Positions 4,151 through 59,881 are shown, counted from the stretch's first letter. The stretch: DNA of 64,000 nucleotides from Candidatus Bathyarchaeota archaeon (GCA_963768425.1 CAVYHV010000030.1:32001-96000), one strand, 5' to 3'. A program made the numbers and translations. The notes: a model not told the origin generated them from the sequence alone.

Positions 4151-4244
4151 CTCCTCCTATGCTTAGCAAGTTGGTGATTTAAGCTGATTGGCAGTCTACG
4201 ATAATAAATATTCTCAGAAGCAACGTTTTTGCTTTCATTCTGAG

Positions 4245-4641: not shown

Positions 4642-5979
4642 CTACGCCTTTCTTGCGTAGGATAGAGCCTCTTCGATGTTTTGGAACCCGTATTTGACTT
4701 CGCTGAACTCTTTTGTCAGCATTTGCACATCTTGTTTGATCTGTGCAGGCGTCCGTTTGCCTTTTATAACGTCGAGCATTAGGTCACAGAGGTGTTTAAT
4801 GTCTCCTTCTCCAAGGCCCCTTCGGGTTACATCTTGGAAGCCGATTCTTAGCCCTGAGGGATTTTCTTTGCTGCTTTGGTCATCATAGGGCAAGAGGTTC
4901 TTGTTGAGGATTATGTTTGCGTCTTCGAGGTCTTGAGCAATCTTGTTGCCGCCGCCGAAACTGCGGATGTCAACGGCGATTTGGTGGCTCTTTGTAAAGC
5001 CTTTCTTTTCAGCTAGGACTTTGATACCGTTTTCAAACAGGTATTGCCCAGCGGTCTGAGCGTTCTTCACTATTTGTTTTGCGAAGTCCGCACCGAAAAG
5101 TTTCATCTCTAAAGATGCGACACCGAGAGCTGGCAACCTGCCCAGATGCGTGTTTGACGCTGTAAGTGGGAAAATGGCGAATTGGATTTTTTTGACCGCT
5201 TTTTCCAATGCTGGATTGTTCTGGTTTCCCATTATGACTCCGCCCTGTGGACCTGGGAAAGTTTTATGGGTTGAGGAAGTGATGAAATCAGCGCCTTCAC
5301 GAAGTGGGTCTTGGAATTGGCCTCCAGCTATTAAGCCTAGAACGTGCGATGCGTCGTAGGCTACATATGCGCCAACTTCGTCGCAGACAGCTTTTAACTC
5401 TTTAACTGGGTGCGGAAAAAGGAAGAGGCTGCCGCCGAATGTGACGATGCCGGGTTTGGCTGCTCGTATGACGTAGGCTGATTTTTCTGCATCAATGTTG
5501 AATTCGTCTGTGTCGTAAACATGGTTGATGTTATCTAAGCCTAGTATGTTGCCTGCTAAACCCGTATAGTCGTGTGAAATGTGGGCTCCGCAGCTTAGAG
5601 GTGTGACAACCATCTTGTTGTTTTTTGAAGCTAAAGACAAGCCTTTAAAAGTAGCTAGGTTCGCGTGGGTGCCCGAAACTAAGCGTACGTCTGCCCAGTC
5701 AGCTTTGAAGAGGCTCTTCATCAGGTCTGTTGCTAAATCTTCAATTTGGCACATGTACTTCTGTCCCTGATAATAACGTTTTTTGACATGGCCCTCTCGG
5801 TCATTGTCTCCTTCCGCGTACCTTTGTGCCAAGTCATGAGAGAAACATAGCATCTGATTGACAGCAGGAGACTTTAGTCCCTCGCTCGCAATCATGTTGA
5901 TACACTCTTTTTCGCGGTATTGCTCGTGTTTGCGGCTCGCCGAAATCAAGTTTTCGAATAGGTCTGAGAAATTGTCCAT
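4642..5979 (-). CDS. glyA: Serine hydroxymethyltransferase
   Basis: INMIASE, KRYYQG, SGTHAN, PLP-lysine motif SSTHKTFPGPQGG, SGLRIG; start at MDNF inferred. Confidence 0.93.
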   Translation of the reverse strand: MDNFSDLFENLISASRKHEQYREKECINMIASEGLKSPAVNQMLCFSHDLAQRYAEGDNDREGHVKKRYYQGQKYMCQIEDLATDLMKSLFKADWADVRLVSGTHANLATFKGLSLASKNNKMVVTPLSCGAHISHDYTGLAGNILGLDNINHVYDTDEFNIDAEKSAYVIRAAKPGIVTFGGSLFLFPHPVKELKAVCDEVGAYVAYDASHVLGLIAGGQFQDPLREGADFITSSTHKTFPGPQGGVIMGNQNNPALEKAVKKIQFAIFPLTASNTHLGRLPALGVASLEMKLFGADFAKQIVKNAQTAGQYLFENGIKVLAEKKGFTKSHQIAVDIRSFGGGNKIAQDLEDANIILNKNLLPYDDQSSKENPSGLRIGFQDVTRRGLGEGDIKHLCDLMLDVIKGKRTPAQIKQDVQMLTKEFSEVKYGFQNIEEALSYARKA

Positions 5980-9170: not shown

Positions 9171-9800
9171 CTAAGCAATTTGGCTCAACTCCTTCCCTTG
9201 CCGCCTCTTAACCTCAACCTTCAAAACCACAGCCACAACAATTGTTACTGTGACAGCCACGGTTACAACAATTGCAACTGAATGTGCCTCATAGAAAGGC
9301 AAGTTGGAAACTCCCAGCTGACTCAAAAAGCCAAAATAAATTACGGTTATGTTACCAGTTAAGCCAGTCACAGTTACAGTTCCGTCGTGCGAGACACTCC
9401 AGTCGTTGCTTACGAAGGTACCGTTAGTCAAGATGACCCAGTCGACACTGCTTCCCCCATTTACTCCTACATCCATGTTTATTATCTGCTCACCTTTGCC
9501 TTGAGCTATATAGTTTAGGCGTTCGTTTGGAAAATAAACAGTTGTAACGAAATGCCCGTAAACGGTAACGTTTGAGTTCTTGGCTGAAATCGTGAAGTTT
9601 TCTAAAGGATCAGAGCCAATAAGGTGTAGATTTGTAAAAACCCAGTTGTTATCTTCAAACGTCGCTGACGAGTAGTTTCCACTTACCCCAAAGTTAATGA
9701 CGCCGTTGTAGGCGGGAATGCCGAATTTTGTATCAGGCCCAAATGCCTTGCTGCTTTGAGCCAGAGAGTTGGGACAAAAAAATGGCAAAAAGAGCGCCAA
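9171..9800 (-). CDS. Secreted beta-rich protein with C-terminal membrane anchor
   Basis: Signal-like N-terminus, Asn/Ser/Thr-rich body, C-terminal TM followed by KRR. Confidence 0.6.
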   Translation of the reverse strand: MALFLPFFCPNSLAQSSKAFGPDTKFGIPAYNGVINFGVSGNYSSATFEDNNWVFTNLHLIGSDPLENFTISAKNSNVTVYGHFVTTVYFPNERLNYIAQGKGEQIINMDVGVNGGSSVDWVILTNGTFVSNDWSVSHDGTVTVTGLTGNITVIYFGFLSQLGVSNLPFYEAHSVAIVVTVAVTVTIVVAVVLKVEVKRRQGKELSQIA

Positions 9801-14827: not shown

Positions 14828-15655
14828 GTGTCTCAGCAAGTGAAAATGGAAATCCTTGAAAAAAACGATAGCAACCTCCGCGTGGTTATCAGGGACGCGG
14901 ATGTTCCGTTAATGAACGCTCTGCGTCGCATAGCGCTTGCTGAGGTGCCGACCATGGCAATTGAAGAAGTTGTCATGATTGAAAACAGCTCTATCCTGCA
15001 GGATGAAATTATAGCTCACAGACTTGGTCTTACCCCACTGAAAACTGATTTGGATGCCTATAACCTGCCTGAAGAATGCGAGTGTCAAAGCGAATTTGGG
15101 TGTTCCCAATGTCGCGTAACATTAACACTTGACGCTGAAGCAAAGGAAGGTACGAGGACGGTTTATTCGGGTGAAATCGTGTCTGAAAACCCAGAGATTA
15201 TCCCTGTGTCGGATAAGATCCCGATTATCAAGCTTGCTAAGAACCAGAAACTTAAGCTTGAAGCCTATGCCCGTTTGGGAAGAGGCAAAGTTCACGCTAA
15301 GTGGCAGCCAGTTTCAATGTGCGCTTACAAGTATTACCCAAAAGTAACTGTTCCAATAGAGAAATGCGAGGAATGCGCAAAATGCGTCGAGATATGTCCC
15401 AAAAAGGTCCTCGAAATTAAAGATGACAAAGTCGATGTGCGAGACCTTTTGGCATGCAATCTCTGCATGGATTGCGTTGAAGCTTGCCCGAAAAAGCCTT
15501 CGCCGCTCAAGGTAGAGTGGGAGAAGGAAGCTTTCGTAATGAACATCGAGTCTACAGGCGCGCTTCCTCCAGGACGCATACTCCAAGAAGCTTCCAAAAC
15601 GTTAGGTAAACAACTTAATGAAATTGAAGAATTGTTAAAGGCTGAATCGCAATGA
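14828..15655 (+). CDS. rpoD: DNA-directed RNA polymerase subunit D (Rpo3) with ferredoxin-like Fe-S domain
   Basis: NALRR..LAEVPTMAI, DEIIAHRLGL, HAKWQP, two CxxCxxCxxxCP motifs. Confidence 0.96.
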   Translation: MSQQVKMEILEKNDSNLRVVIRDADVPLMNALRRIALAEVPTMAIEEVVMIENSSILQDEIIAHRLGLTPLKTDLDAYNLPEECECQSEFGCSQCRVTLTLDAEAKEGTRTVYSGEIVSENPEIIPVSDKIPIIKLAKNQKLKLEAYARLGRGKVHAKWQPVSMCAYKYYPKVTVPIEKCEECAKCVEICPKKVLEIKDDKVDVRDLLACNLCMDCVEACPKKPSPLKVEWEKEAFVMNIESTGALPPGRILQEASKTLGKQLNEIEELLKAESQ

Positions 15656-22531: not shown

Positions 22532-23750
22532 TTATTCACTCTTTATTTGACTAACTCTTTCTTCTGGCATTTTCGTGTTCCTGAAGAAGTACCAGAATAG
22601 CCCTATTGAGACCAGGTAGAATAGCGCCGCCAAAAAGAACGGGGCTGCTAGAAGTGACATGCCTATAAGCCAGGCGCCAACGAATGAACTTAAAGCGTTC
22701 GGCAATCTCCAGAGGGCGGCGCTTATGCCTGAAGCTGCTCCACGTTCATCTTCGGGGACCAACCCCATTATCATCGACTGCGCCAAGGGGCTTGACATGT
22801 TCATTAGAAATGCTCTCGAGGTGTAAACGAAGCTGGCGATGATGTAGTTTGGGGACAGGGGTGTCGCGAACATGAATACTGTTGAAATGGCTTCTGTAAC
22901 AACTATGGCGTTGACAACTCCAAACCTTTTTGCGAGTGTAGGAGCAGCGAGCGTGGATACTCCTACTACGATGCTTGAGACGCCCAGAATTGGACCGCTT
23001 AATGAGTCAGGTATGCCGTACTGTGCTTTCATCCAAGCCGTCATCAGGGGAATAATCATGCCTGCGCCCACAGCGATGATGGCGCCTGTTATGACGTATT
23101 TTGCCAAAACGTTTTTTGATTTTCTAGGGAGCAGTTGACTTAAGGTTGCTTTTGCTTTGCTGAGTTCTTGGTTCCGTGACTTTCAACATAATTAATGTTG
23201 AAGATAGGCTCAACGCTGCAAGAACAACGTAGAGAAGAATATGGCTTTCTTTGTTAGAGAACCCGGCCATTGTTGAAGTCGCCAAGATTGCAGCGGCGCC
23301 AACGCCGAAAGCAGTGCTGTTGGCGAAGCCGAACATTGAGAACACGCTGTTTCTCTTTGTGTCGTCGGCTTTTGCTGCAAGTAACGCGCTAACAGAAGCT
23401 GATGAGGCTGCTTCTGAAATGCCTTCAAAAACCGCGGCTATAATCAGCAAAGCCGTGTTGGTTGTTAAGGCGAAAACCGCAATGATGAGGCTCGCTATTA
23501 CGTTGCTTAATATGAGAATTCGTCTTCTGCCGTATTTGTCTGCTGCGATTCCCATGGGGATGCTGGTGGCGAAAGTGGATATACCCATAATTGTTACGAT
23601 GAGCCCCATGAGGTAGAAGCTTAATCCCTGAACTGTGGTGAGGAAGTAGGCTATGTCGGTGTAAAACATGCCGTAAGCCACTGAGGGCAGCACCGAGAAA
23701 TAGATTAGGTATTTTGCCTGTGTCGACATTCCTCTGTAAACGCTAAACAC
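22532..23750 (-). CDS. MFS transporter (split near 23120)
   Basis: GIAADKYGRRR motif A in the N-half; LAKRFG and VPEDERGAASG in the C-half. Confidence 0.85.
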
Positions 23751-26671: not shown

Positions 26672-28025
26672 TTAATCACCTTTTGGGAAGCAGGCGACGA
26701 AATCGCCCTCTTCAACTTCCATCATACTTGGTTTTGCAGCTCTGCATTTTTCTGTTGCATCTGGACACCTTGGGTTAAAGGAACATCCAATTGGAACATT
26801 TCTCATATCTGGAACAGTGCCGCCTATGCCTTGGATTTCATTTCCATCAATTGTTGGGATAGCTTTTGTAAGCATTCTCGTATAAGGATGAAGAGGCCTG
26901 CTAAAGACCGCGTCTATGGGAGCAATTTCGACTATTCTTCCTGCGTACATTATGCCGATTCTGTCGCAGACTTCTGATAACACAGAAAGATCATGGGATA
27001 TGAATATGAATGACGTGTTGAACCTGTGCTTAAGATGACGTGTAAGCTCGAGTATCTGAGCCTGCACAGTTACGTCTAAAGCACTAGTAGGCTCGTCTAA
27101 TATCACTAGCTCAGGATTGTTAGCAAGTGCAATTGCTATTACTATTCTCTGTCTCATGCCGCCTGAAAGTTCATGAGGATACATTCGCACTACTTTATCG
27201 GGGTTAGGAACCTCAAGCATGGAAAGAAGTTCAGTCGCCTTGATGTATCCCTCCTTAAGCAACACGTTTTTGGCTGCTCTGTTGACACCTGGGATTCTCA
27301 TCCAACCGCCAATATTCTTCCCGCTTCCAACCCTTTCAAGAACCAATTTCTCAAATGAGCCCAACTTTTCCGAATGGAGCGACAAGATAATTTTCTCTTT
27401 CTTAGCCTCTCCCAGATCGTTTCTTCTCCAGACACTGAGAACTTGATCCTCAATGCCATGTAGATTCTTCGATTCAGCGTACTTGTTGATAGCTTGTTCG
27501 TCTGCACCTTCCTTAAGTAGTTTAATTATCTGTCCAAGGTCATCGTGGGTAACCTTTGTCCTAGGCAATTTTTCTTTCCGCTAGCATCGGCTGATGAGCG
27601 ATGATGGTTTCTGCTATCTGGAAACCGATCTGAAGAACCGGGTTTAAGCTCGTCATAGGGTCCTGGAAAACCATTGAGATCTTGGTTCCCCTAATGTCGC
27701 ATGACTCTCTGTTCAATTTCTTAATGGCTTCCTCGCTTTGTTTAATGTTGAACTTTTCCCCTTCGCTTGGGGCAGCATTCCTCAGACAGGCTGTCAAGTC
27801 TCTGTTTCCGGCAAGCAAAACTTCTCCTTGGGTTACCGCCGCGTTTTTGGGGAGAAGTCCCATTATAGTTAGCCCTAGTGTCGTTTTACCGCATCCGCTT
27901 TCTCCCGCTACACCGAATATTTCACCCTGTTTAAGGCTGAGATCCACGCCGTTGAGGGCTTTGTAGATGCCTCTCCTAGTGTAAAACTGCACGTTTAAGT
28001 CAGAGACTTGTAGAGTGTAACTCAA
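26672..28025 (-). CDS. dppD: Oligopeptide ABC transporter ATPase (DppD/OppD) with long insertion, frameshift near 27570
   Basis: GESGCGKTT and FQDPMTSLNP in the 5' fragment; YPHELSGGMRQR and LDEPTSALD in the 3' fragment. Confidence 0.88.
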
Positions 28026-30026: not shown

Positions 30027-32632
30027 TTATCCTTTGACCCACCAATAGAAGATTGAGTCTGCAGCTCCGCCTATCATTGGGTTCTCTTCTGATTGTATCC
30101 CGTTGTATCCTTTCATGTATGGCTTAATTACCCAGAAGGAACTGGGTTGCTGAGCATAAACGTACATGTACAGGTTTATTGCGCTCTGTTCTACCAGCTT
30201 GTAGTCTGCAGCTGATTGAGTTGAAGTCGTTGCGGCGTCTGCCTGTTGAATTTCCGTGTTCAGTTGTTGATATTGACTCGCTTCTGAAGCAAATCCTGCC
30301 GCGGTCAAGCCACTGACTGAGAAGCCAGATGCAGATGGGTAAGTTCCTCCCTGCTCATAGAGTGCGTTGACGAAGTCACTTGGATACGGATAGTCAGCTA
30401 TCCAGCCTAGATAGTAGACCGGCATAGGATTCGTGTTTGCTACTTGCTCGGCCTATAATTGTTGCGAACGGTTCATACTCAACGGTTGCCGTTATGGACG
30501 GGTCCATTTGGTGCAATGCAGCGGCCCACATTTGGGCGCCAGCGTAGTTGATTGTATCGCCAGCTGTGACTATGATCGGAATGGTGACAGCCACATTGGC
30601 TTCTCCTGACTGCTGCATAAGGCTGGTGGCGGTGGCTAAGTCGTAGGTTGGAACGTTCTGAAGTTCGCTGGGCGGCACATAGTATGGTAAGCCTGGAATT
30701 ATTGCGCCCGCGTATCCACTTGCGAAGTCTTCACCGTAAACGTTGTTGCCCACTATTTGGTCTAAGTAGTTGGTATAGTTGAACGAGTCGCAAAATGCTT
30801 CTCGTACGTCTGTGTTAGCGAAGTAGTTTGTTGGCACGTTAAAGTTGCTGCCGAATGTTGATTTCATTAGCGACGTGTCTAGGTTTGTGTTGAATACGTA
30901 GAAGAAGCATGATAGTGATGGCACTTGATAGAGGCTGCTTTGGCCTGATGTAACCATTGACTTGATTGATGGCATATCGCTGTTTGGTAATGCTGTGACG
31001 ATGTCGGCTGATCCGCTTGTGTACAGTAGGTATGCTGTTTCAGGATCTTTGACCCATTGTATTGACACTGTGTTTGTTACTGTGGGTATTCCAGATACGC
31101 CACTCCATCCTGAGTTAGGAGTTAAGACTACCGACTGACCCGGCACATAGCTTTGTATTTGGTAGGGACCGGATGCAACAGGGTTGTTCTGGATCTTAGT
31201 GTTGTAGTTGCCTTCGTTGCCTTGGCTCTGGTAATTGTAGAATCCAGCTGGTGAGAAGGTTATTCCAGCACCGACACTCTGAAGCCAAGATGAATCTAGT
31301 ATTCCTGTTCCAAGCGGGAAGGCTATTGCGGTGAAGAACTGTGCTGAACTTGTGGGTGAGACAAGAGTGAATGTGACTGTATTTTTGCTGCTGTCGTATG
31401 TGACTGCGTTCGTTATCGCGTTGTAATCCTTTGTGTCGCTGGCGCTTGACATTATGGGTATTCCTGCGGTTGCTCCTGGAATCAAGTATTGTGCTAAGAA
31501 TCCAGTCAGGCGTTCCAGGTGCTCCACCGACAAATAACAGGTTCCTGATCATTGTATAGTAGATATCGTAGGCCGTAATTGGATCTCCGTTCGAGAATTT
31601 CTCTCCGCTTCTTATCGTGAAGGTGTATGAGGTGCTGTTTGCGTTTATTCCGCCGTTAGATGTGGATGGAACCGATGCGGCTAACATTGGCAGGAAGTTA
31701 GTTGTTGACGATCCGTCGTAGACGAGAAGTGTTCCCATGGTGTTTAGAATTACTTCATATCCGACAGTTTCGTAATCGATTTGCGGGTCAAATGAGTATG
31801 GACCTCCAGGCACGTTTTCGGCGACGTTTATAACTCCGGCGTTAGGCACTTTGGTGGACTGTGTGTACAGAGCATATGGTTGAGAAGAAGAACTGACTAC
31901 TACAGTGCGTTCAATGGTCGTGCAGTACGTCTGATTTGTAACTGAATTTTCCGTTACAATGGTTAAGCTTACAGGGTAAAGACCCGTCTGGGTATAGGTT
32001 GCTTTGACGGGGTTTGTTTCTGGATTGTTAGTGTTGCTGTTTGCGGAGACCGTCTGGTTAGCGCCGTTTCCGAAGTCCCACACGTACTCACATATGATTA
32101 CGTTGTTTGCTGAGGGTGCTTCGAGGTAACCGCCGGTGAAGTATGCTGCAGTGTTCACCGTTACTATTGGTTCGTTTGGATTCAACGTGGTGTTCATTGA
32201 AATTACAGGGACTGATATTACCGGGGCGTTTGAGGAACTGATCGAAGGCGATATCTGAATCGTGCTCACGGCGTTATTTGTAGAAGCGACAACGTTGCCT
32301 CCTGCTGTCTCCTGAGCTGTCACGAAAAATGTTCCACCGTATTGATAGGTGTGACTTGCCGTTGGCGAACTTGCGGTCAATCCAGTTGCGGATTGTCCGT
32401 CTCCGAAGTAGATTGTGGCTTGTCCGTTTGATGCAAAGTTAGATAGAGTAAAGGTTATGGCTGTGCCTTGAGTTGTAGACGATGCGCTGGCTTTCAGCGT
32501 AAACCCACTACTGCTGCTGCTGCTTGTCGACTTCGTGGATTCATAGTAATATACTCCTGCTCCTATTGCTACGATCAAAATTACAACCAGAATAATTGCC
32601 CAAATCGCTTTTCCCAATGCTCTTTTAGACAT
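30027..32632 (-). CDS. dppA: Peptide ABC substrate-binding protein (family 5) with N-terminal anchor and two PKD-like domains; two frameshifts
   Basis: TM anchor, IYFGDG and WDFGNG PKD-like motifs, SFDPQIDYE, YTFTIRSGEKFSNGDPITAYD, SGPY, GWIADYPYP. Confidence 0.85.
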
Positions 32633-33044
32633 GTGTTTTCCCCTTTCGCTGATTTTTCTTATTAAAGTTATTTTGGTGAAAGGTATTTTACCTTTCAATA
32701 TTTAACATTTGCGCTAACTCGCATATGCCAAAAAATTACTGAAAAAATATTTTACATTGACATTTTTATGTTTAATGAATTTGTATTCGATTGAACTTTA
32801 TTCAGGAATTTTGCAAAATTTGACATCGCAATGTGGCCTGCTAAATTTCAATCAACTAAACCAGCCTTGCTTCTCAATAAGGAACTTAGCGTTCAAAAAG
32901 TGAGAGCCAAATGGAATTTTATGCCTTGCCATTTACTTGAGCCTAAAAATGAAACCCGCATTCAATAAGGTCGACTGCTTAGTCAACAGCAAAATAGTTT
33001 GATGCACGACATCGGCGGTTTCGCAGGAGGCAAGACAAAAATAT

Positions 33045-38862: not shown

Positions 38863-38901
38863 TGGTGCAGCGAGTGGGATTTGAGCCCATGAACCCTGCG
38901 G
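38863..38901 (-). repeat. Degenerate tRNA-Leu 3'-end copy (att-like scar 2)
   Basis: TGGTGCAGCGAGTGGGATTTGAGCCCATGAACCCTGCG versus intact GTGCAGGGGGTGGGATTTGAACCCACGAACGCCTGCG. Confidence 0.75.
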
Positions 38902-39046: not shown

Positions 39047-40343
39047 TTGGACAAATCAAAAGGAGATGACTTAGCTTTGACAGAACCAAAATCGAAAGGG
39101 ACCAAGGGTCCTCTTCGAGTGCTCCGAAACCGCAACTTTACTCTTCTTTTCTATGCGGGCGCCGCTTCCACCGGGGGCTTTTCCCTTGGACAGGTGGCCC
39201 TTACATGGCTGGTATACGTCACGACTGGTTCGGCGCTTGATGTCGCCTACGTTGCTCTGTCAAGTACGGTAGCATCTGTTCTACTCAGCGTGATCGGCGG
39301 TACCTTGGTTGATAGACAGAACCGTAAATGGCTGATGATACTCTCTGATTTGCTAAGAGCCCTTGGGCTTGTAGTACTCGCGGTGTATCTATATTTTGCA
39401 GGATTCAGCTTGCCCCTTGTACTGGTAGTCTCCTTTGTTCTGGGCACTTTCTCAACAATTTTTAACCCCGCGCAGAGAGCAGTGATTCCATCGATTCTTA
39501 AATCTGATGAAGTTGCTGACGCTAATGGTCTAGTGCAGGTTGCAAATTCGGTCTTCCAATCTGTAGCAAGCGCGGCTGGCGGTGCTATAGTGGCGACAAT
39601 AGGCGCTGTGGCCGCTTTAGGGATTAACGCGACAACATTCGCCATCTCTGCTGTGCTTACTATGTCTATGACTCTTGGTGCTCTTGTGAAACCCAGTCTG
39701 ACAGCGCTTTAATGGAGAAGTTCGCAAAGGTTTTGTTTCTGACGCCGCCGACGGAGTCAAATACATAACTTCTAACAAGGGACTGCTTTATCTGACTGTT
39801 TCAGCCGGATTTATCAACCTATTCTTCGCCATGATAATACCATTTGTTGTAGTCTACGCCACCAATGTGCTGAACGGCGGCGTGGCTGTTTATGGCTCCT
39901 TGCTTGCTGCTTTTGCAGTAGGGATGGCGCCTGGCGCGCTTCTTGTGGGAAGAACCAAGGCGGTTGCTTATGCAGGCATTGTCTGGGGAGCCACTGGACT
40001 CTTGGCGGGAGCGGCAATGCTTTTGTCAGCGTTCACTCGAAGTTTCATCGTTGCGTTTGTGCTATTTCTCGTCGTCGGGGTCATTTCTGGATATGCAAAC
40101 GTAACTTGGCTCTCTGCAGTTCAGCTCATTGTGCCCTCCGAGATGCAGGGCAGGTACTTCGGTGTTGACCAACTGGGGAGTTTTGCGGTTATGCCAGTCG
40201 GGCAAGTTTTGGGTGCCTTTATAATCCAAAGCATGAGTGTTAAGACCGACTTTATAGTCGCTGCTGTAGGGATATCTGTAATTTCCCTTGTGTTCCTCTT
40301 ATCGAAGGATATGCGGGCGGTTGGCTACTCAGCAGAGAAATAA
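39047..40343 (+). CDS. MFS efflux transporter (MefA/EntS-like), split near 39710
   Basis: LRNRNF, WLVY.TTGSA, GGTLVDRQNRK..MILSDLLR, FNPA..A.IP; QLIVPSEMQGR. Confidence 0.85.
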
Positions 40344-41237: not shown

Positions 41238-41407
41238 GGAGAGGACCTTGGGCGATATCGAACCGTATTGTTTATCTGGAGGTTTAAGCCCAACCAAAGT
41301 GAATTACCCTACATTTTATTTGCTAAGAAGCAGGAAATAGCAAGAAACAAGCAGAAAACACGCAAAAAGTGCTGGGAGTGGAGCTTCATGTTGTTTCTAT
41401 GCTCTCT

Positions 41408-44559: not shown

Positions 44560-44813
44560 CGCAAAAGCCAACATTGTGAAGCCTGAAGGCCGCGTCTTTC
44601 GACCAAACTTGCAAAATCAAAATGCGGTTGTGCATGGGGTTAGATCTAAACCCAAGTCTAAATTTAACGAGCAAAACCCTAATCGCTCTAACTATGAAAG
44701 TGTTCGTCCGATATTTTTCAAGGTAAATCCGGCGAGATTTAAACCAAAGACGAATTCAGGGTCGTCCAATCCATGGCAACGCTTTTAGAAACAGGCAGAA
44801 AATAAGCAAAAAG

Positions 44814-44898
44814 TGCAGGGGGTGGGATTTGAACCCACGAACGCCTGCGCGATAGGGTCCTAAGCCCTACTCCTTTGACCAGACTTGGAGACCCCTGC
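44814..44898 (-). tRNA. trnL: tRNA-Leu(TAG), no intron, CCA not encoded
   Basis: Cloverleaf GCAGGGG/CCCCTGC-A, anticodon arm TAGGG-CTTAGGA-CCCTA, long variable arm, T-arm GTGGG-TTCAAAT-CCCAC. Confidence 0.96.
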
Positions 44899-45151
44899 AC
44901 CTGTTTTTGTTGATTCGAGTATTCTTTGTCTTGCTAATTTATTAACATGAAGTGTTGTCAGCGGGCAAAAGCGAAACGATGTTGCATTTTTCTTTAATGG
45001 CAAGCGAAAACCGCATTTTTTGTTTCATTGGCTTTTTTCATTTTCAGTCTACTCTCCACTGCTATGAAGTGTCGTTTCCGATGATACCTTAAAAGGCTGA
45101 ACGGTTTACTTTGGTTTCCTCGTTGGGTTTCGAAACGTTGGGTTTGGCAAG

Positions 45152-45466
45152 GTGTGTGTTATGTCGGAGGATCAAGGGAATTTAGATGAGCTCATAGTGA
45201 TGGAGCGTGAAGTGATGGCTGAATTGAAAAAGATGTTCGGTGATCCGGCGCTTTCAACTTTGGAGAGGGTTCGGGTTGCTAATGCTCTTGCTTATCACGC
45301 TGTGGTTTTGAATAGGCTTCAATCGAAAAAAGGTGAGGACTCCTTGTTTGATGAGGATAATTTGGGCGATTTTGTTGCTGGAGCCCACTATGCAGATGGG
45401 CCGATGCGTAGACGGATTAGAAGGGACTTTAGAGATTGGACGAGACGAATTTCGTTGAAAAAGTAA
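45152..45466 (+). CDS. Small helical protein overlapping the terminase gene; candidate terminase small subunit
   Basis: About 100 aa, amphipathic helices, overlaps the TerL start by 31 nt; function inferred from position only. Confidence 0.55.
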   Translation: MCVMSEDQGNLDELIVMEREVMAELKKMFGDPALSTLERVRVANALAYHAVVLNRLQSKKGEDSLFDEDNLGDFVAGAHYADGPMRRRIRRDFRDWTRRISLKK

Positions 45467-46899
45467 CAAACGACATGGAGTTTACAGCTTCGGTATGTGA
45501 GGGTTTACTGCAGAAACCTAAAGCGCTAAAACAGCTGGTGGCCTACAAAGAAGTTACTGACAAACTGATCAAAGACCCAGTGTTTTTCGCAGTGTTAATG
45601 TGCGGCGACAAATGGCTTACTCAAGCGCCTGAGCACCAGAAACTTCTTCGAGACGTCAACTCAAAACAGGTTGCGGTCTGCGGCAGAGGATGGGGCAAGA
45701 GCCGCGTCTTTAGCCGAAAAAATCTCTGGTTACTCTACACTAAACCCAAAATAGAAAGTTTGATAGTAAGCAGCACTCAGCGCCAATCGATGATTATGTT
45801 TGACTACTGCTACTCAACCATCATGTCCAATCCACTGCTAAGAGAGATGGTTCAAAGACCCGGAACAACCCACACAATAATAAAACTGAAACCGCCCTTA
45901 GGCGGCCGAATAGTTGCTTTGCCCTGCTCAAAAGACAAACTCAGAGGATACCACCCAGACTACATCTTCATTGACGAAGCATCGATTGTTCCAAGCGAAA
46001 TGATAACAAGCGAAATAATGATGATGCTAACAAAGCCAAAAGCAAGCTTAATCATGGGTGGAACGCCCATGGGGTCAGACCATGTTTTTCGCAAAGCCTT
46101 TCTAGATTCAAAACGTTACAGCGTACATCATTACGCAAGCTACCAAAGCCCCCTTGTCAGCGAAACGCAACTAGACGAGTGGAAAGAAGTAATGACCCGT
46201 GAAGAATGGCAACGTGAGGTTGAAGCAATGTGGGTAGAATCCACGCACACGTTCTTTTCTATGGATCTGATTGTGGGCTGCGTCGATCCTGACTTAGGTG
46301 CATCCAACGCTTACATTGAGGACATGGAAAAAGCTAAGCCGGAGCAGCTTAGAGGACAATTTTACGCTGGCTTAGACTTGGGCAAACAAATCGACTACAG
46401 TGTACTGGCAATTGTACAGAGGTTTGACAGCGGCGAAGTAAAGCTTGTGCATAAACGTCAACTGCCGCTTGGCACCAATTACCCCCAAGTCATCGGCTAC
46501 GTAGCTAGGGCAAGCCAAATCTTCCATTTTGAAAGGATAAACGTGGACAAAGGCGGAATAGGCGACGCCATAGTAGACGAATTACGCAAAGCCAACATAT
46601 ACGGTGTCGAAGGCATTTTCTTCACCGACACAGAAAAAGAAAACATGCTAAACACCCTTAAACTTTTCATGGAAAAAAGAATGCTAAAGATCACTGCAGA
46701 TGACAAAGCGCTAATCGCGCAAATCAACGAGCAGCAATATGAGTATCTGCAGCCTAAAACAGCCCAGGAATGCATACACCTCAAATTTTGGCATCCGCAG
46801 GGAAAACACGACGATCAACTGATGGCTCTAGCATTAGCTTGCCGTGCAGCTTCAAGAGCAGCGCCACCCGGTCGAGGCGCCGTTATGGGCGGAGATTGA
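45436..46899 (+). CDS. terL: Phage terminase large subunit-like protein (ATPase plus RNase H-like nuclease)
   Basis: Walker A CGRGWGKS, LRGYHPD, Walker B IFIDEA, coupling motif GTPMG, nuclease AGLDLG, VDKGGIG, HDDQLMALALA. Confidence 0.9.
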   Translation: MDETNFVEKVTNDMEFTASVCEGLLQKPKALKQLVAYKEVTDKLIKDPVFFAVLMCGDKWLTQAPEHQKLLRDVNSKQVAVCGRGWGKSRVFSRKNLWLLYTKPKIESLIVSSTQRQSMIMFDYCYSTIMSNPLLREMVQRPGTTHTIIKLKPPLGGRIVALPCSKDKLRGYHPDYIFIDEASIVPSEMITSEIMMMLTKPKASLIMGGTPMGSDHVFRKAFLDSKRYSVHHYASYQSPLVSETQLDEWKEVMTREEWQREVEAMWVESTHTFFSMDLIVGCVDPDLGASNAYIEDMEKAKPEQLRGQFYAGLDLGKQIDYSVLAIVQRFDSGEVKLVHKRQLPLGTNYPQVIGYVARASQIFHFERINVDKGGIGDAIVDELRKANIYGVEGIFFTDTEKENMLNTLKLFMEKRMLKITADDKALIAQINEQQYEYLQPKTAQECIHLKFWHPQGKHDDQLMALALACRAASRAAPPGRGAVMGGD

Positions 46900-46950
46900 A
46901 CCGCAAAAACCAAAACAAAAACTATGGGAAATATTTGAAGGAGAAAAAAA

Positions 46951-47191
46951 CATGGGGAAGGTACTTTCATTCGGAATATTAGAGTTTGATGGCGAAAAAA
47001 TATCGTATTCTTACTGCAGAGGTGAAAAAATACCAAACAGCGACGAATACAACAATTACATAGAAACATATTATGGCGGTCGAATTTGCGTTGATGACCA
47101 TGGATTCGGTTTAGACCATGCAATCAATTTGCTGAAAAATGAAATTTCAACTCGTAAGTCAAATCAGAAAGGTCTCCGACCGGAGAGGTAG
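46951..47191 (+). CDS. Hypothetical small protein
   Basis: GGAG Shine-Dalgarno then MGKVLSFGILEF...; part of ORF 46844-47191. Confidence 0.45.
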
Positions 47192-47276
47192 GTTCTCTCT
47201 TGTGTGTACAAGCCGACCGGTCGGTCAATGTATATACACTTTGTTGATACAGTTTGTTGATACAGGTGACTTGGGT

Positions 47277-47616
47277 TTGGCTAAGATGCTTAAAGCGTTT
47301 AGATTTAGTCCTCAACTTTACGGAAGTTTTAGAGAATTAGCGTCAAGAAATGGCTATACAGTAACTTCAGCTTTTGAAAAATTCATGTCCAAATCGCTCG
47401 AATACGGTCTGGTCTTTCCATCAGCCCCTAAAATCGAAAATGTGGAACCAGAGGCTCGAGTTATGCTTGCTTGGCTTAAAGACGGCAAGTACTGGGTTAG
47501 TCTTGGAGGCAAAACTGAGACCAGCACACGGGGGCGTCTTTTGCAACTATTACCTAACGTTGAAGATGCGGACTTAAGGCTCGATATTGAAGAGACACTG
47601 AAAAAAGAAGCCGTAG
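47277..47616 (+). CDS. Putative ribbon-helix-helix-type DNA-binding protein
   Basis: GGTGA Shine-Dalgarno; N-terminal KAFRFSPQLY..FRELA..NGYTVTSAFEKFM strand-helix-helix pattern; true stop probably TAG 47614-47616 after a poly-A indel. Confidence 0.5.
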
Positions 47617-47703
47617 TACGGGAAAACATTTTGGTTTTTGCCAGCTTTTCGACCGTAAGCATTTTATTGGCTAGGAGCGTTGTTTCACCGAATACAGATA
47701 CGC

Positions 47704-47780
47704 GCCTTCGTAGCCTAGCCCGGTGGGGCGTTACCTTGGTAAGGTAATGGTCGCGGGTCCAAATCCCGCCGAAGGCTCCA
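47704..47780 (+). tRNA. trnT: tRNA-Thr(GGT), CCA encoded
   Basis: GCCTTCG/CGAAGGC-T-CCA, anticodon arm TTACC-TTGGTAA-GGTAA, T-arm GCGGG-TCCAAAT-CCCGC. Confidence 0.95.
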
Positions 47781-47801: not shown

Positions 47802-48056
47802 ATGCATATGCACATAGAAAGTGCCATGACTAAAGTCATATCTCTCTCCAACGAAGCATATCAGACTCTTAAGGAATCCAAAAAACCCGGTGAGTCTTTT
47901 TCAGACGTAGTTCTTAGAATCGCAAAGAAGAAGAAAAAGAAGTCACTTTTGGAGTTTTCAGGCAAATGGGTGGGCGACGATGCCGATGAAGTGCTTTCAC
48001 AGATAATGAAGGACAGAGAGAGGTCAGCTTACGAAAAGGTCGACTTATTTCCGTGA
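47802..48056 (+). CDS. vapB: VapB-type antitoxin (DUF217-like)
   Basis: TKVISLSNEAYQTLK..KKPGESFSDVVLR; start probably 47826. Confidence 0.88.
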   Translation: MHMHIESAMTKVISLSNEAYQTLKESKKPGESFSDVVLRIAKKKKKKSLLEFSGKWVGDDADEVLSQIMKDRERSAYEKVDLFP

Positions 48057-48440
48057 TTCTTGACACTGACGCGCTAATTGCACTCTTGAACGGTGAATCT
48101 GCAGCAGACGAAGCAGTTCGTCATCTGGAAGAAAAAGATGATAAAGTTGCGACCACAATTATTTCGGCATATGAACTTCTAAGGGGAGCCCATATTTCAT
48201 CTGAACCGGAGAAACCTAGCCGAAGCTCGCGAGTTGTTATCAAACATAGAGATTTTGGACTTGACACTGCAAGCCTGCGAAGAAGCTTCGAAAATTTACT
48301 GCGATCTTCGGAAGAAAGGTTGCTTGATCGGCGAAAACGACATGCTTGTGGCAGGAATTGCAAAAGCGCATGCCGACGCAGTTATGACGCGAGATACACA
48401 TTTTAAGCTTATTTCAGCGATAACTGCAGTTGAATGGTAG
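48053..48440 (+). CDS. vapC: VapC PIN-domain toxin, frameshift near 48210
   Basis: ILDTDALI, ISAYEL..G; shifted frame continues LRKKG.LIGENDMLVAGIA...MTRD.HF. Confidence 0.85.
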
Positions 48441-54935: not shown

Positions 54936-54965
54936 GACCGGGGGTCCAAATCCTGCCGAAGGCTC
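54936..54965 (+). repeat. Degenerate tRNA-Thr 3'-end copy (att-like scar)
   Basis: GGGTCCAAATCCTGCCGAAGGCTC versus GGGTCCAAATCCCGCCGAAGGCTC in the intact tRNA. Confidence 0.85.
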
Positions 54966-55682: not shown

Positions 55683-55730
55683 TTGGTAAATAATGGTTGC
55701 GGGTCCGAATTCCGGCGAAGGCTCCAATTC
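55683..55730 (+). repeat. tRNA-Thr 3'-half copy from the anticodon loop onward (attR-like)
   Basis: TTGGTAA-ATAATGGTTGCGGGTCCGAATTCCGGCGAAGGCTCCAATTC versus TTGGTAAGGTAATGGTCGCGGGTCCAAATCCCGCCGAAGGCTCCAATTC. Confidence 0.88.
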
Positions 55731-56658: not shown

Positions 56659-58041
56659 TTGGTCCTTTCTACCGAACATTTGGGGAATCAAAACCGTTTG
56701 CTCCTGTATGGTTTACCTAAAAACTATTCATGTAATTTTGAAAAACCTTCTTATCCCAAGACAGAGAGTATTTTTCAGAACACGGAGGGGAAAACCATCA
56801 AATTCGCAGCGAAACAGGAAATTTCCATTTTAGCCGCGGTCCTCGCCGTCTCCTTTCTAATCAGGGTTGCCTTGTTCCCGCTTAAAGGCTACACTATAGA
56901 CACGAACGACTTCCTCGCCTGGTTCAACATCGCGGCAACACATGGAATAAGACCCTTTTACAGCTCGGCAGGCTTTGCTGACTACCCGCCGTTTAATGTT
57001 TACATTTTCTGGTTCTTCGGCTCCATCGCCAATGCGGCGTCAAGAGTCGGCATCAACCCTGCCTACATCGTAAAATTGGCGCCTAACATCTTCGATTTGG
57101 GCACGGCGGTTTTAATCTTCGTTTTTGTGCGCAAACAATCAACCTTCAAACTTGCGTTGGTGGCGACGGCGCTGTACACCTTCAACCCAGCCGTAATCTA
57201 CGACGCCGCTGTCTGGGGGCAATTCGACGCCATCTACACATTCTTTCTCGTGCTTTCCCTGATGCTTGCGCTGAGAAGCAGACCGAAGCTTTCCGCGGTA
57301 GCCTTCGCCCTTGGGATCCTGACTAAGCCCCAGGGGATAGCTCTGTTGCCGCTGGTGGCGTTTCTGATTTACAAGAAAAACGGGCTCAAAGAGCTGCTTC
57401 TTTCCGTTGTTACTTTTGCTGCAACGGTTTTCGTGGTTATTCTTCCTTTCAACTGGGGAGGTAGCCCAATCTCTTTCCTAACCAACATCTACTTCGTGGC
57501 TTACAGCGGGTACAAGTACACTTCAATTAATGCGTTCAATTTGTGGGGTTTGATTTCGGGCATGTGGGTGCCAGACGGAAACCTCTACATCGTGGGGTGG
57601 GTGCTTTTTGGGGTCTTCGCCGTTTTTACTCTTTACTTGTTGAACAAACGTTTCAAAACTTCAAATGATTGGATGGCTGTTTATGCCGCGTTCATGCTTC
57701 TCTTCGCGTTTTTCATGCTTCCGACAAGAATTCATGAACGGTACCTGTTCCCGGCTATAAGTGCGATGGCGTTGATGGTTCCTTTCATAAAAAGGGCAAG
57801 GGCAATCTACGCGGTTTTAACAGCGACTTTCCTCGTCAACGAAGCCTACGTTCTGTACTGGCTAAACAAAGCTTATCCTGGCGCTCCGAACTTGACTGGT
57901 GATCCAGTGGTTTTGTTGGTGAGCGCGATTAATTTATTAATGCTCATTTACGCTTCATTTGTGATGTGGGACGAGGGGACATGGCTTAAAGCTGAACAGC
58001 CGCCGCCCTTGCAATCTGCCGAGCGAGGTGAGCCAACGTGA
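56659..58041 (+). CDS. GT-C superfamily polytopic glycosyltransferase (mannosyltransferase-like)
   Basis: DYPP, FNPAVIYDAAVWGQFD, TKPQ, NAFNLWG, PTRIHERYLFP; true start probably near 56797. Confidence 0.82.
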   Translation: MVLSTEHLGNQNRLLLYGLPKNYSCNFEKPSYPKTESIFQNTEGKTIKFAAKQEISILAAVLAVSFLIRVALFPLKGYTIDTNDFLAWFNIAATHGIRPFYSSAGFADYPPFNVYIFWFFGSIANAASRVGINPAYIVKLAPNIFDLGTAVLIFVFVRKQSTFKLALVATALYTFNPAVIYDAAVWGQFDAIYTFFLVLSLMLALRSRPKLSAVAFALGILTKPQGIALLPLVAFLIYKKNGLKELLLSVVTFAATVFVVILPFNWGGSPISFLTNIYFVAYSGYKYTSINAFNLWGLISGMWVPDGNLYIVGWVLFGVFAVFTLYLLNKRFKTSNDWMAVYAAFMLLFAFFMLPTRIHERYLFPAISAMALMVPFIKRARAIYAVLTATFLVNEAYVLYWLNKAYPGAPNLTGDPVVLLVSAINLLMLIYASFVMWDEGTWLKAEQPPPLQSAERGEPT

Positions 58042-59881
58042 ACTTTGAATTGAACATCAACAAGAAAGACGTAATAACCATCATTTTAGTTTCGGTAGTT
58101 TTCTTCGGCATAGCTTCTTGGAACGTGGGTTCAATTCAGTATCCAGTTACAAATTGGCAATCCACTCAACCAGAAAGCTTCTATGTCAACCTCGGCGGAA
58201 TGCAAAACGTTCAAACCGTGTATTTCTTTGTTGAAAGCGGCAACGCATCCGTCACGATATATTCTGGGTCTCCAGAAAACTGGACTTCTGTCGGAAATTT
58301 AATTCTTCAACCCTTAGGTACAGATTACTCAGTTTTTGAACAATGCACAATTAATGCGGTTACTCAGTTTTTGAGCTTTGATGTTAAGCCAACAAATTAT
58401 GATTCTCGACCTGATTTCTATTGGAGTGTTCCCAACCCTTCGGATCGGCTGCCGTCACCTTTCATTCAAATCTCTGAAATTGGTCTGCAAGGCCAGAATA
58501 ACAAGCAAATTCGGATCCTGACAATTACAGGCGAAAACACTACAGACCCAACTTTATCTAAGCTGATTGATGAGCAGAGCAAACTGCAGATCCCGCCTGA
58601 TTACATGTCTAAGATGTATTTTGATGAGGTCTATTTTGCCAGGTCTGCTGAACAATACCTGCACGGTCAGATACCTGATGAGAGGACTCATCCTCCGCTT
58701 GGAAAATTGATTCAAGCCTCAGGCATAGCAATTTTCGGCGAAACTCCATTTGGTTGGCGAATAATGGGCGTAATATTCGGGACTTTACTTGTTCCCTTGA
58801 TGTACCTTATAGGAAAGAAGCTTTTTGGAACGTGGATTGCAGGTTTCTCAGCGGCATTTCTGTTTACATTCGATTTTATGCATTTTACAATGGCGAGAAT
58901 AGGAACCGTAGATACGTATGTAGTATTCTTCTCTTTGCTTTCACAGCTATTTTTCCTAGTTTACTTTATGAAAGTCATTAAAGACGGTTGGAAAACTTCT
59001 GTCCTGCCGTTATTCTTAGCAGTAATCTTCTTTGCGTTAGGAGTCTCGACAAAGTGGTTCACAATTTTCAGCGCCCTTGGCATGCTCGCACTGCTAGCGG
59101 CTTACAGGATTAAAGGCGTCAAAAAACTAAAAGCAAGCCTTGGCGAAAAATACGTTGCTTTCTTTAACTATCCCTTTTTCCTGCTGCTAGGGTTCATAGG
59201 TTTAGCGGTTGTAATTTACTTTGCAACCTATATTCCTGACATGCTCGCAGGAGACTCTTTTGGTTCGATTCTTAATCTGCAGAACGCAATGGCAGGTTTC
59301 AGTCAGGGACGGTAGACCAAAATTCCTCGACTCCATGGTGGTCGTGGCCTTTGATGATTGGCGGTCCAAATCTGCAGGTTCCGCATTGGTTTGATATAAC
59401 CTACCTGCCAAATAACGTTGACTCTACAATCACAACGATGGGTAATCCAGCTGTTTGGTGGATTGGCTTCGTTTGCGTGCTCACGCTTGCCGTAATTGTG
59501 GTGTATGAAACCGGGTTGGTTCAAAAGTTTGTGAAATATTTATCTGGACAAAAAATGGGGGCGCAAAATAAATTTAGATTGGAGTTACCTGCAGTGTACA
59601 TTGTTGTTGTGTTCTTTTTCTCATGGCTTCCTTACATCGTAATTTCCAGGTCAACTTACATTTACCATTTCTATTTGAGCGTGCCACTTCTCTGCTTAGC
59701 AACAACTTATTTCATTAACAAATACTGGAACACTCGTCTTGGGAAAGCCGCTGCCATAGCCCTATTTGTTTCAGTCGTGATTCTATTCATAGTTTTTTAC
59801 CCGGTAATTTCAGGAATGCCCGCCCCCGTAACATACATTCATAAACTCAAGTGGCTTCCAGGTTGGTTCTTTGCTCCATGA
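58038..59881 (+). CDS. Dolichyl-phosphate-mannose--protein O-mannosyltransferase-like (GT39), frameshift near 59305
   Basis: YFDEVYFAR, HPPLGK, FGWR, MHFTMARIGTVD, STKW; shifted frame continues SSTPWWSWPL, MGNPAVWW, TYIYHF. Confidence 0.85.

Follow-up and report, generated by a model that had tools for sequence, protein, structure and literature searches.

Terminases are treated as a hallmark of tailed viruses and are used for provirus calls. Here we describe a terminase cassette in the chromosome of a Candidatus Bathyarchaeota archaeon that has persisted as a stand-alone module over long evolutionary spans; it lies in a stretch of 64,000 nucleotides (GCA_963768425.1 CAVYHV010000030.1:32001-96000), referred to below as the window. 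The closest described case is NitKor-E1 of Candidatus Nitrosopumilus koreensis AR1, a single element that was read as a relic and whose function was called enigmatic in the passage devoted to it (Krupovic et al., 2019, PMC6563490). A literature search for orphan or domesticated terminases in Bathyarchaeia or in archaea at large returned only NitKor-E1, supplementary tables, which could list such large terminases (TerL), lying outside that search. In papers on the viruses and genomes of Bathyarchaeia, terminases appear only inside viruses or proviruses. According to PMC10690885, the satellites of bacteria encode either TerS or a complete capsid-plus-terminase module, in every case together with integrase and replication genes. 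Archaea, according to 10.1101/2025.02.15.638363, had just two known satellites, both of spindle viruses, and none of head-tail viruses.

We show that the Bathyarchaeota cassette recurs in many genomes without structural virus genes and that its terminase evolves under strong constraint. It was very probably captured from a Bathyarchaeia head-tailed virus lineage and has since persisted as an orphan chromosomal module, vertically inherited within sub-lineages and occasionally relocated.

A viral terminase pair between two divergent tRNA genes

Pfam searches of 73 open reading frames (ORFs) showed that the window is archaeal chromosome: a ribosomal-protein/RpoD operon lies at 13.2-16.9 kb, and among the other cellular genes are those for transporters and a form III-like RuBisCO. 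Two divergent tRNA genes face each other with their 5' ends, and the 2806 bp between them hold four plus-strand ORFs. The boundaries and the first two ORFs are as follows (aa, amino acids).

44813-44898, minus strand: tRNA-Leu(TAG), left boundary, 5' end toward the cassette (ARAGORN, Rfam)
45152-45466, plus strand: orf104, small helical partner of 104 aa, likely start ATG 45161 (ORF call)
45436-46899, plus strand: TerL-A, intact large terminase of 487 aa, N-terminal ATPase and C-terminal RNase H-like nuclease (ORF call)
47704-47780, plus strand: tRNA-Thr(GGT), right boundary (ARAGORN, Rfam)

The 487-aa protein matched PHROG phrog_2 at E 5e-37, and 7 further terminase-large-subunit PHROGs were among its 10 matches; it is the ATPase half that matches these TerL families. 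It scored below the curated cut-offs of Pfam Terminase_6N (19.8 bits, cut-off 22) and NCBIfam termin_lrg_T7 (29, cut-off 150). Residues 309-469 aligned with the solved TerL nuclease chains 5m1f/5m1q (E 2e-8), GLDLG, VDKGGIGD and HDD pairing with GADFG, ADTWGVGD and HDD of that chain. Across 38 orthologues, 147 of the 487 alignment columns were invariant, among them Walker A (GRGWGKS), Walker B (IDEAS) and D314, D371, D377, D459 and D460, which we take to be the catalytic nuclease residues. An initial sequence-only reading of this locus had described an intact TerL with ATPase and nuclease motifs, and the profile matches, the structure-sequence matches and the invariant motifs bear this out. 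To judge by these sequences, TerL-A and its small partner are a catalytically complete terminase pair of viral origin, and TerL-A is presumably active as an enzyme.

The stop of orf104 overlaps the TerL start by 31 nt, and an overlap of 28-31 nt is kept across loci. Aligned with 38 orthologues, orf104 shows a basic C-terminal tail, and its structural model contains four helices (predicted local distance difference test, pLDDT, 71.5), in keeping with the overlapping helical partner of about 100 aa first described. No Pfam, PHROG, NCBIfam or PADLOC family matched orf104; its best PDB profile match was a LuxR-type helix-turn-helix (HTH) at E 0.09, and Foldseek against the PDB returned nothing at E <=0.001 (best E 1.1). 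The family is small, its profile retrieving 42 representatives among 1.84 billion proteins, nearly all shorter than 165 aa, with single members of 229 and 429 aa. orf104 has a homologue in the small ORF that precedes TerL in a virus contig (G227/L044; hhalign probability 88%, E 2.8e-6); hhalign did not match it to the Myb-like HTH partners of other TerL-B genes, TerL-B being the sister group described below. Because orf104 has neither an HTH nor a solved structural relative, we use the label TerS for it in a positional sense only.

Portal, capsid, tail, integrase and replication families were absent from the 73 window ORFs searched with Pfam and the 37 searched with PHROGs, and the four ORFs of the module matched none of them in Pfam, PHROGs or NCBIfam. 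These searches revealed no further viral hallmark around the module in the 64 kb, in line with the sequence-only reading. Rfam over 38-57 kb found nothing besides the two tRNAs. Fragments of the tRNA 3' ends recur downstream of each gene, at 41343-41381 and 38865-38894 for tRNA-Leu (islets of 3.4 and 5.9 kb) and at 54942-54965 and 55691-55730 for tRNA-Thr (islets of 7.2 and 7.9 kb). They are the marks of successive integrations at both tRNAs, so the two ladders of scars in the sequence-only reading are real. Since these scars all lie downstream of the tRNAs and the cassette lies on their 5' side, it is outside the scar-bounded islets, again as first read.

The pair recurs as an orphan in Bathyarchaeia

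A scan of one genome per species gave 54 loci, from which, with the window and one IMG/VR contig, 47 TerL-A loci of 58-93% identity were obtained; a metagenome scan gave 435 relatives, of which the best 80 were used. The orf104-TerL pair recurs over these 47 genome loci and 80 metagenome loci at about 60-98% identity. A protein database contained 622 relatives, the best 120 of which were all 68-100% identical, about 485-491 aa long and on contigs of up to 2.3 Mb. With the window protein as tblastn query, orf104 was found directly upstream of TerL in 40 of the 47 genome loci, and other queries gave weak matches in four more (L063, L079, L081, L082); in the metagenome set, where many loci are truncated, it was present in 61 of 80. 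TerL-A is full length (483-494 aa) in 38 of the 47 genome loci, two copies are cut by contig ends, and seven are frameshifted or truncated, so that loss does occur.

When 1210 flank ORFs of the 47 loci were clustered, the recurrent families were orf104/TerL (47 loci) and P3, a small protein described below (24 loci); every other family occurred in at most 8. Besides cellular genes, the recurrent neighbours were PIN/MazE pairs, ParA-type ATPases and a type IIG restriction-modification gene, and full Pfam annotation of four contexts of 9-20 kb and of 46 recurrent neighbour families revealed no integrase, portal or capsid. Structural genes were also sought with the structural proteins of four Bathyarchaeia virus contigs and of a provirus in the window's own genome. 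No portal, major capsid protein (MCP) or tail homologue was found in the 54 loci that extend for 5 kb or more on each side of the pair (0/31 genome loci, 0/23 metagenome loci), and a TerL without portal or capsid neighbours, which the sequence-only reading had suggested surveying for, is thus a recurrent feature of Bathyarchaeia. Viruses are under-represented in binned genomes, which makes the unbinned metagenome loci the fairer of the two tests. Nine of these 54 loci matched proteins that flank the structural genes of the provirus on contig C14 (444, 172 and 175 aa), the 172-aa protein occupying the TerS position.

Virus-type neighbours accompany TerL-A in eight of the 80 metagenome loci (L148, L149, L160, L172, L174, L184, L182, L130). 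L148 is the same contig as L042, the virus-type label of L172, L174 and L184 is based on a single upstream 126-aa homologue, and in L182 an MCP-like gene lies divergently beside orf104. MCP-like matches were also seen in L066 and L067, where the 208-aa neighbour examined is not MCP-like. In L066 the last ~28 TerL codons are duplicated about 1 kb downstream (4135-4219 and 5240-5323), and the copies bracket a UPF0175/PIN-like pair, as in a toxin-antitoxin insertion with a duplicated target.

Evidence of viral ancestry

The nearest viral terminases are found in Bathyarchaeia virus contigs. TerL-B, the sister group of TerL-A at 38-41% identity, includes the terminase of IMG/VR contig L047, whose gene order is TerS-like, TerL, portal, scaffold, MCP. 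In the 24-kb virus contigs G227 and G229, which contain MCP-like and scaffold-like genes, a small gene, TerL and ABC ATPases follow the tail genes. The same order holds in L042/L148/L149, in which tail and neck genes precede TerL-A and orf104 and an ABC ATPase follows them.

In trees (a quick IQ-TREE run and a FastTree of 108 rows) TerL-A formed a tight clade on a long stem. Rows with virus context were basal (L184, L172, L174) or fell in a middle grade (L160, L042/L149), and the crown clades, including that of the window, were orphan. This placement points to descent of the cassette from a Bathyarchaeia head-tail virus lineage.

A second orphan pair was also seen, consisting of a 196-aa Myb-like HTH protein and a TerL-B. 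It is syntenic in two species of the genus (contig C12, 64.5-66.5 kb, in the window's genome, L041; contig C5, 464.7-466.8 kb, in G187, L038) and is frameshifted in the window's genome. Orphan terminases may be common in Bathyarchaeia. Some TerL match was present in 86 of 201 sampled genomes, so that calling proviruses from TerL alone is risky in this class.

Selection on the cassette and its age

Ratios of nonsynonymous to synonymous substitution (dN/dS, ω) were calculated pairwise by NG86, the medians for TerL covering 75 pairs with dS <1.5. For TerL the ratio was 0.072 between the window and L050 (dS 0.49), with a median of 0.11 over the 75 pairs; the medians for orf104 and P3 were both 0.22. 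In the synteny group L051-L054, TerL shares 78% aa identity at ω 0.07, and the flanking cellular genes 76-95% at ω 0.04-0.17. TerL likewise diverges in step with its cellular flanks in two further synteny groups, making three in total. As TerL and flanks diverged together, the orphan state is older than the species splits and was under purifying selection throughout. Selection on TerL-A is as strong as on neighboring housekeeping genes, in an abundant and uncultured archaeal class.

These measurements bear on the idea that the cassette is a relic without function, in which the two or three final genes of decayed proviruses have yet to erode. NitKor-E1 is a precedent that was read in this way in the text on it in PMC6563490, seven of the 47 copies are broken, viral relatives exist, L182 has the divergent MCP-like gene beside orf104, and the window itself has lost the stop codon of P3. 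Had decay been random, one would not expect 38 of 47 loci, at many different chromosomal sites, to have retained the same intact pair of genes, with a dN/dS of 0.07-0.11 and a divergence that parallels that of flanking housekeeping genes across species splits. We regard a relic as improbable, and the selection data already disfavor it. They also speak against a strain-specific remnant under relaxed selection, the outcome that the sequence-only reading had named as its own refutation, since the loci are mostly orphan and co-diverge with their flanks. Its description of a domesticated TerS-TerL pair stands as far as long retention under selection is concerned, by dN/dS, co-divergence and orphan context, but the name TerS is positional. 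That the module shows no decay was put slightly too strongly: TerL is intact, but the P3 stop is lost.

Insertion sites and mobility

Throughout the family, tRNA-Leu(TAG) and tRNA-Thr(GGT) are conserved as a divergent pair. Their spacer measures 107-132 bp in seven genera and elsewhere 350-1800 bp with unrelated small genes, compared with the 2806 bp of the window. The cassette is a secondary insertion into a tRNA spacer that was ancestrally 107-132 bp long. Among 54 genome-contig loci and 80 metagenome loci checked, flanking by Leu and Thr was confined to the window and relatives 93-98% identical to it (L050 and L101 in the former set, L119-L122 and L132 in the latter). Linkage to tRNAs, for which the sequence-only reading had proposed a survey, therefore finds no support as a general feature, and other clades use other sites. 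In clade B the cassette sits at the edge of a variable island of 2.2-9.2 kb, between a MobA-like gene and a ParA cluster; the corresponding site in the window's genome is empty (214 bp). In other relatives (L104-L115) the Leu/Thr spacer holds an MGS-like gene, a radical-SAM gene, Lrp-like regulators or small zinc-ribbon or ribbon-helix-helix (RHH) genes. With such varied inserts, the spacer on the 5' side is a hot spot as well.

A linkage to ParA was considered, since in two clades ParA-type genes lie right next to the cassette, and was set aside. ParA clusters occur without the cassette in the window's genome (contigs C10 and C22), and they are therefore host loci beside insertion sites; for the same reason P3 was rejected as a ParA partner.

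In L083 a 185-bp stretch upstream of orf104 (9541-9726) has an inverted copy 5 kb away (14832-15015, 92% identity). The two copies bracket TerL and the ParA cluster, and partial copies are present in L085 and L055, two loci with an inverted ParA cluster. In one DNA run, available as assembled contigs, a joint 44899->47652 was seen with 30 nt on one side; it probably comes from relatives with an empty spacer and was not used as evidence of excision.

Such movement raises the alternative that the terminase has a cellular or self-mobilizing role without capsids, in processing chromosome or island DNA or as the cassette's own transposase-like nuclease. Different clades use different sites, which are empty in the window's genome, insertion into the short tRNA spacer took place without an integrase, and the L083 repeat would suit such a role. 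Against it, the cassette has no terminal inverted repeats or target-site duplications, terminal inverted repeats being absent both in the window and at the L083/own-genome junctions, and the ParA cluster bracketed by the L083 repeat is a host locus, found in the window's genome without the cassette. Terminases had not been seen before in non-viral elements according to the statement on this point in PMC6563490. We consider a capsid-free role to have a low probability. To our knowledge, no terminase acts without a capsid.

Small accessory genes and the repeated element

The other features between the tRNAs are listed here.

45071-45096, plus strand: promoter-like motif GTCGTTTC-N9-CTTAAAAGG with TATA-like box, read from upstream sequences, putative promoter
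45121-45150, plus strand: tandem 15-bp direct repeat directly before the orf104 start (repeat search)
46844-47191, plus strand: 115-aa ORF as called; true gene about 79 aa at 46952-47191
47139-47747, plus strand: 202-aa ORF as called; contains P3, about 112 aa, start 47277 or 47286
47196-47270, plus strand: element of about 70 nt directly upstream of P3, with palindrome GCCGACCGGTCGG and three tandem ~13-bp repeats

Both small genes that had been noted downstream of TerL exist, but their true sizes are about 79 and 112 aa and not 115 and 202 aa. The third gene is assigned to 46952-47191 because relatives carry stop codons upstream of MGKVLSF in the 115-aa frame. It is confined to the sub-clade of the window, plus L162 at 53% identity, and searched as the 115-aa ORF it had no match in Pfam, PHROGs, NCBIfam or PADLOC.

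P3 is a narrow family of 177 clusters. It is usually convergent with TerL and lies 300 kb away in G187. In the sample of 201 genomes P3 and TerL-A each occurred in five and both together in four, and these four are close kin and do not form an independent statistic. The stop codon found in relatives is lost in the window, where the frame continues into tRNA-Thr, to 47747. P3 belongs to no Pfam, PHROG, NCBIfam or PADLOC family, and Foldseek against the PDB gave nothing at E <=0.001. Local Foldseek matches were weak (Arc 1baz, probability 0.51; NikA 2ba3, probability 0.60; all E >1), as were those to Pfam RHH_5 (2 of 24 members, E 0.12) and Omega_Repress. Its model has helices at 13-25 and 30-43 after a conserved FRF segment and a helical or hairpin C-terminal domain, and three tandem ~13-bp repeats precede its gene in all 23 loci of relatives checked (23/23) as well as in the window. 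From these features we suggest that P3 may be an autoregulated DNA-binding protein of RHH type.

The element before P3 is made up of a conserved 5' part with the palindrome, followed by the three repeats, and is putatively operator-like or TATA-like. It has 23 further copies in the window's genome (e.g. C6:16410-16571, C14:143050-143190, C13:89337-89406), three of which precede P3-like genes while the remaining copies do not. The repeat heptamer is uniform within a copy and differs between copies (TTGATAC, CATATAC, CGGTAC and others). The copies could be a dispersed operator set or resemble a miniature inverted-repeat transposable element. They account for a depth spike at 47174-47290 when assembled contigs were mapped. 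The predicted RNA fold of the element is unremarkable (z -2.1).

Upstream of orf104, the GTCGTTTC-N9-CTTAAAAGG motif is common to the upstream regions of L051-L054 and L060. A different motif, ATATTTGGATCATAT, often in two tandem copies, stands about 25-40 nt before the orf104 start codon in L042, L055, L058, L059, L061, L062, L064, L078, L083, L085 and L099. It is found in clades without P3 and in a virus-context contig, and is a candidate operator or packaging-site (pac)-like sequence.

Possible functions

Our favored reading, offered as a tentative one, is that the cassette encodes a capsid-less packaging enzyme that would use the capsids of co-resident viruses, by hijack or by interference. 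The pair would be a working enzyme without capsids of its own that becomes active during replication of a related head-tailed virus in its host cell. TerL would dock on the procapsids of that virus and, guided by its small partner, would cut and pump non-virus DNA, starting at or near the cassette. The cassette and neighboring island DNA could then spread by transduction, and the virus yield would be lowered. Since the catalytic residues are conserved, real packaging or cutting is favored, and interference would then be a by-product; a passive decoy is the less likely reading. The patchy and island-bound distribution fits an accessory or selfish role. A narrower version, which we hold to be rather doubtful, is an integrase-less packaging parasite: two genes and a regulator would take helper procapsids, start headful packaging at their own chromosomal site, transduce the adjacent tRNA-linked islets and cut virus yield.

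Possible helpers reside in the same genome. Head-tail clusters are present on contigs C14 (0.1-9 kb), C16 (0.3-10.5 kb) and C28 (90.8-101.7 kb), with portals 42-50% and MCPs 36-43% identical to those of L047. C14 and C16 are near-duplicates at contig starts, and C28 is apparently frameshifted and has a different TerL.

Several observations weigh against the use of viral capsids. The TerLs of the resident head-tail clusters are only about 25% identical to TerL-A, and a virus of the L042 type was not found in the window's genome. The cassette contains no integrase or replication gene, unlike every described satellite, and transduction followed by homologous recombination leaves its relocation to new sites unexplained; the one occupied/empty pair compared showed neither terminal repeats nor target duplications. 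A search of the sequence yielded no pac site, none of the solved TerS proteins is a structural relative of orf104, and PADLOC-DB v2 gave 0 families for orf104, TerL, the 115-aa ORF and P3 (E <=0.01). The broken copies (7/47) and the patchy distribution (5 of 201 genomes in the class sample, 3 of 12 in the genus, including the window's own) count here as well. RNA-library contigs of one study, which are assembled contigs only, cover 45716-46148 (TerL) and 47236-47421 (P3) at low depth; they are a weak sign of expression, could be contaminating DNA and were not used for expression level. Packaging itself we infer, as we do the dependence on helper capsids and the packaged substrate.

Interference could also be the whole function, with the terminase poisoning or misdirecting the packaging of incoming viruses that have a close TerL, through mixed motors, wrong cuts or occupied portals, and no transfer of DNA. 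The cassette is patchy and accessory-like, its neighbors in variable islands include PIN/MazE pairs, type IIG restriction-modification genes and a PDC-S01-like ATPase, and contemporary viruses carry a TerL-A about 70-74% identical to the chromosomal copies. Defences that act on virion assembly or on the terminase have been published. Against this reading, defence genes are common in any variable island; no PADLOC model matches any of the four proteins, and the invariance of all catalytic motifs goes beyond the needs of a dominant-negative decoy. Interference without transfer is in our view unlikely.

The resident clusters also bear on the idea of a dispersed gene-transfer agent (GTA), for which the cassette would do the packaging while other parts of the genome supplied head and tail. 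Like GTA genes, the cassette is vertically inherited and under purifying selection, and head-tail clusters are indeed present elsewhere in the window's genome. However, each of the three has its own TerL-like gene (TerL-C in C14 and C16, a 502-aa ORF in C28), very different from TerL-A, and this makes a dispersed GTA in this genome unlikely. The C28 genes look frameshifted, no conserved structural cluster co-occurs with the cassette, and the cassette is present in only 5 of the 201 genomes. The suggestion of a GTA arm, made in the sequence-only reading, finds no support here, and we give it a very low probability. Our tentative preference remains a packaging enzyme that would draw on the capsids of other viruses.

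Other observations in the window

Directly after tRNA-Thr, at 47802-48440, a VapB-like antitoxin and a PIN toxin, the latter apparently split over two frames, form the first cargo of the Thr islet. Split genes, seen as adjacent or overlapping ORFs, occur at 22532-23750, 26672-28025, 30394-32698, 39047-40343, 48053-48440 and 58038-59881 and correspond to MFS, ABC ATPase, solute-binding protein, MFS_3, PIN and PMT. For these, and for the fragmented provirus genes of C28, the cause could be frameshifts introduced by assembly or genuine pseudogene formation.

Comparison with known systems

With the terminases of Caudoviricetes, as seen in IMG/VR contigs L042, L044, L047 and L049, the cassette shares the TerL architecture, the motifs and a small gene overlapping the TerL start, and in L042/L149 TerL-A and orf104 sit in viral gene order. 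It differs from them in that the window and about 119 of the 127 loci have no accompanying portal, capsid or tail gene, and orf104 does not have the HTH of the TerS-position proteins in the sister TerL-B group.

P3 resembles RHH repressors (Arc, CopG, omega, the NikA N-terminus) in its predicted strand-helix-helix N-terminus and in the tandem repeats before its own gene, and departs from them in having no significant profile or fold match and an extra C-terminal domain.

GTAs keep the whole head-tail gene set. Like RcGTA-like agents, the cassette consists of virus-derived packaging genes that are selected and vertically inherited; unlike them, it conserves only the terminase, is patchily distributed and has no conserved structural neighbors.

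Packaging genes in the chromosome are also a feature of the Staphylococcus aureus pathogenicity islands and other phage-inducible chromosomal islands (SaPI/PICI), of their capsid-forming kind (cf-PICI), of P4 and of the PICI-like elements (PLE), satellites that exploit helper particles, are often near tRNAs and often cut helper yield, as set out in PMC10690885. In that account SaPI/PICI have their own TerS, and cf-PICI have TerS and TerL plus capsid and portal, whereas the cassette has no integrase, replication gene, capsid or portal. Should it prove to be a packaging parasite, Archaea would gain their first satellite-like or lateral-transduction device of tailed viruses, which would also be the first to rely on TerL rather than TerS. 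The cassette is in any case a compact candidate for virus-capsid hijack, transduction or packaging interference in Archaea, and its proteins are small enough for direct biochemistry.

The likeness to NitKor-E1 is that of an archaeal chromosomal element in which TerS and TerL are the sole Caudovirales-like genes, with, in NitKor-E1, a VapBC pair nearby. According to PMC6563490, NitKor-E1 has a tyrosine integrase and a restriction endonuclease; the cassette lacks an integrase, is represented by dozens of orthologous loci and shows measured purifying selection. What was a single enigmatic relic becomes a recurring and testable phenomenon. The kind of system is a known one, a virus-derived module retained in a chromosome; new is a conserved orphan terminase cassette.

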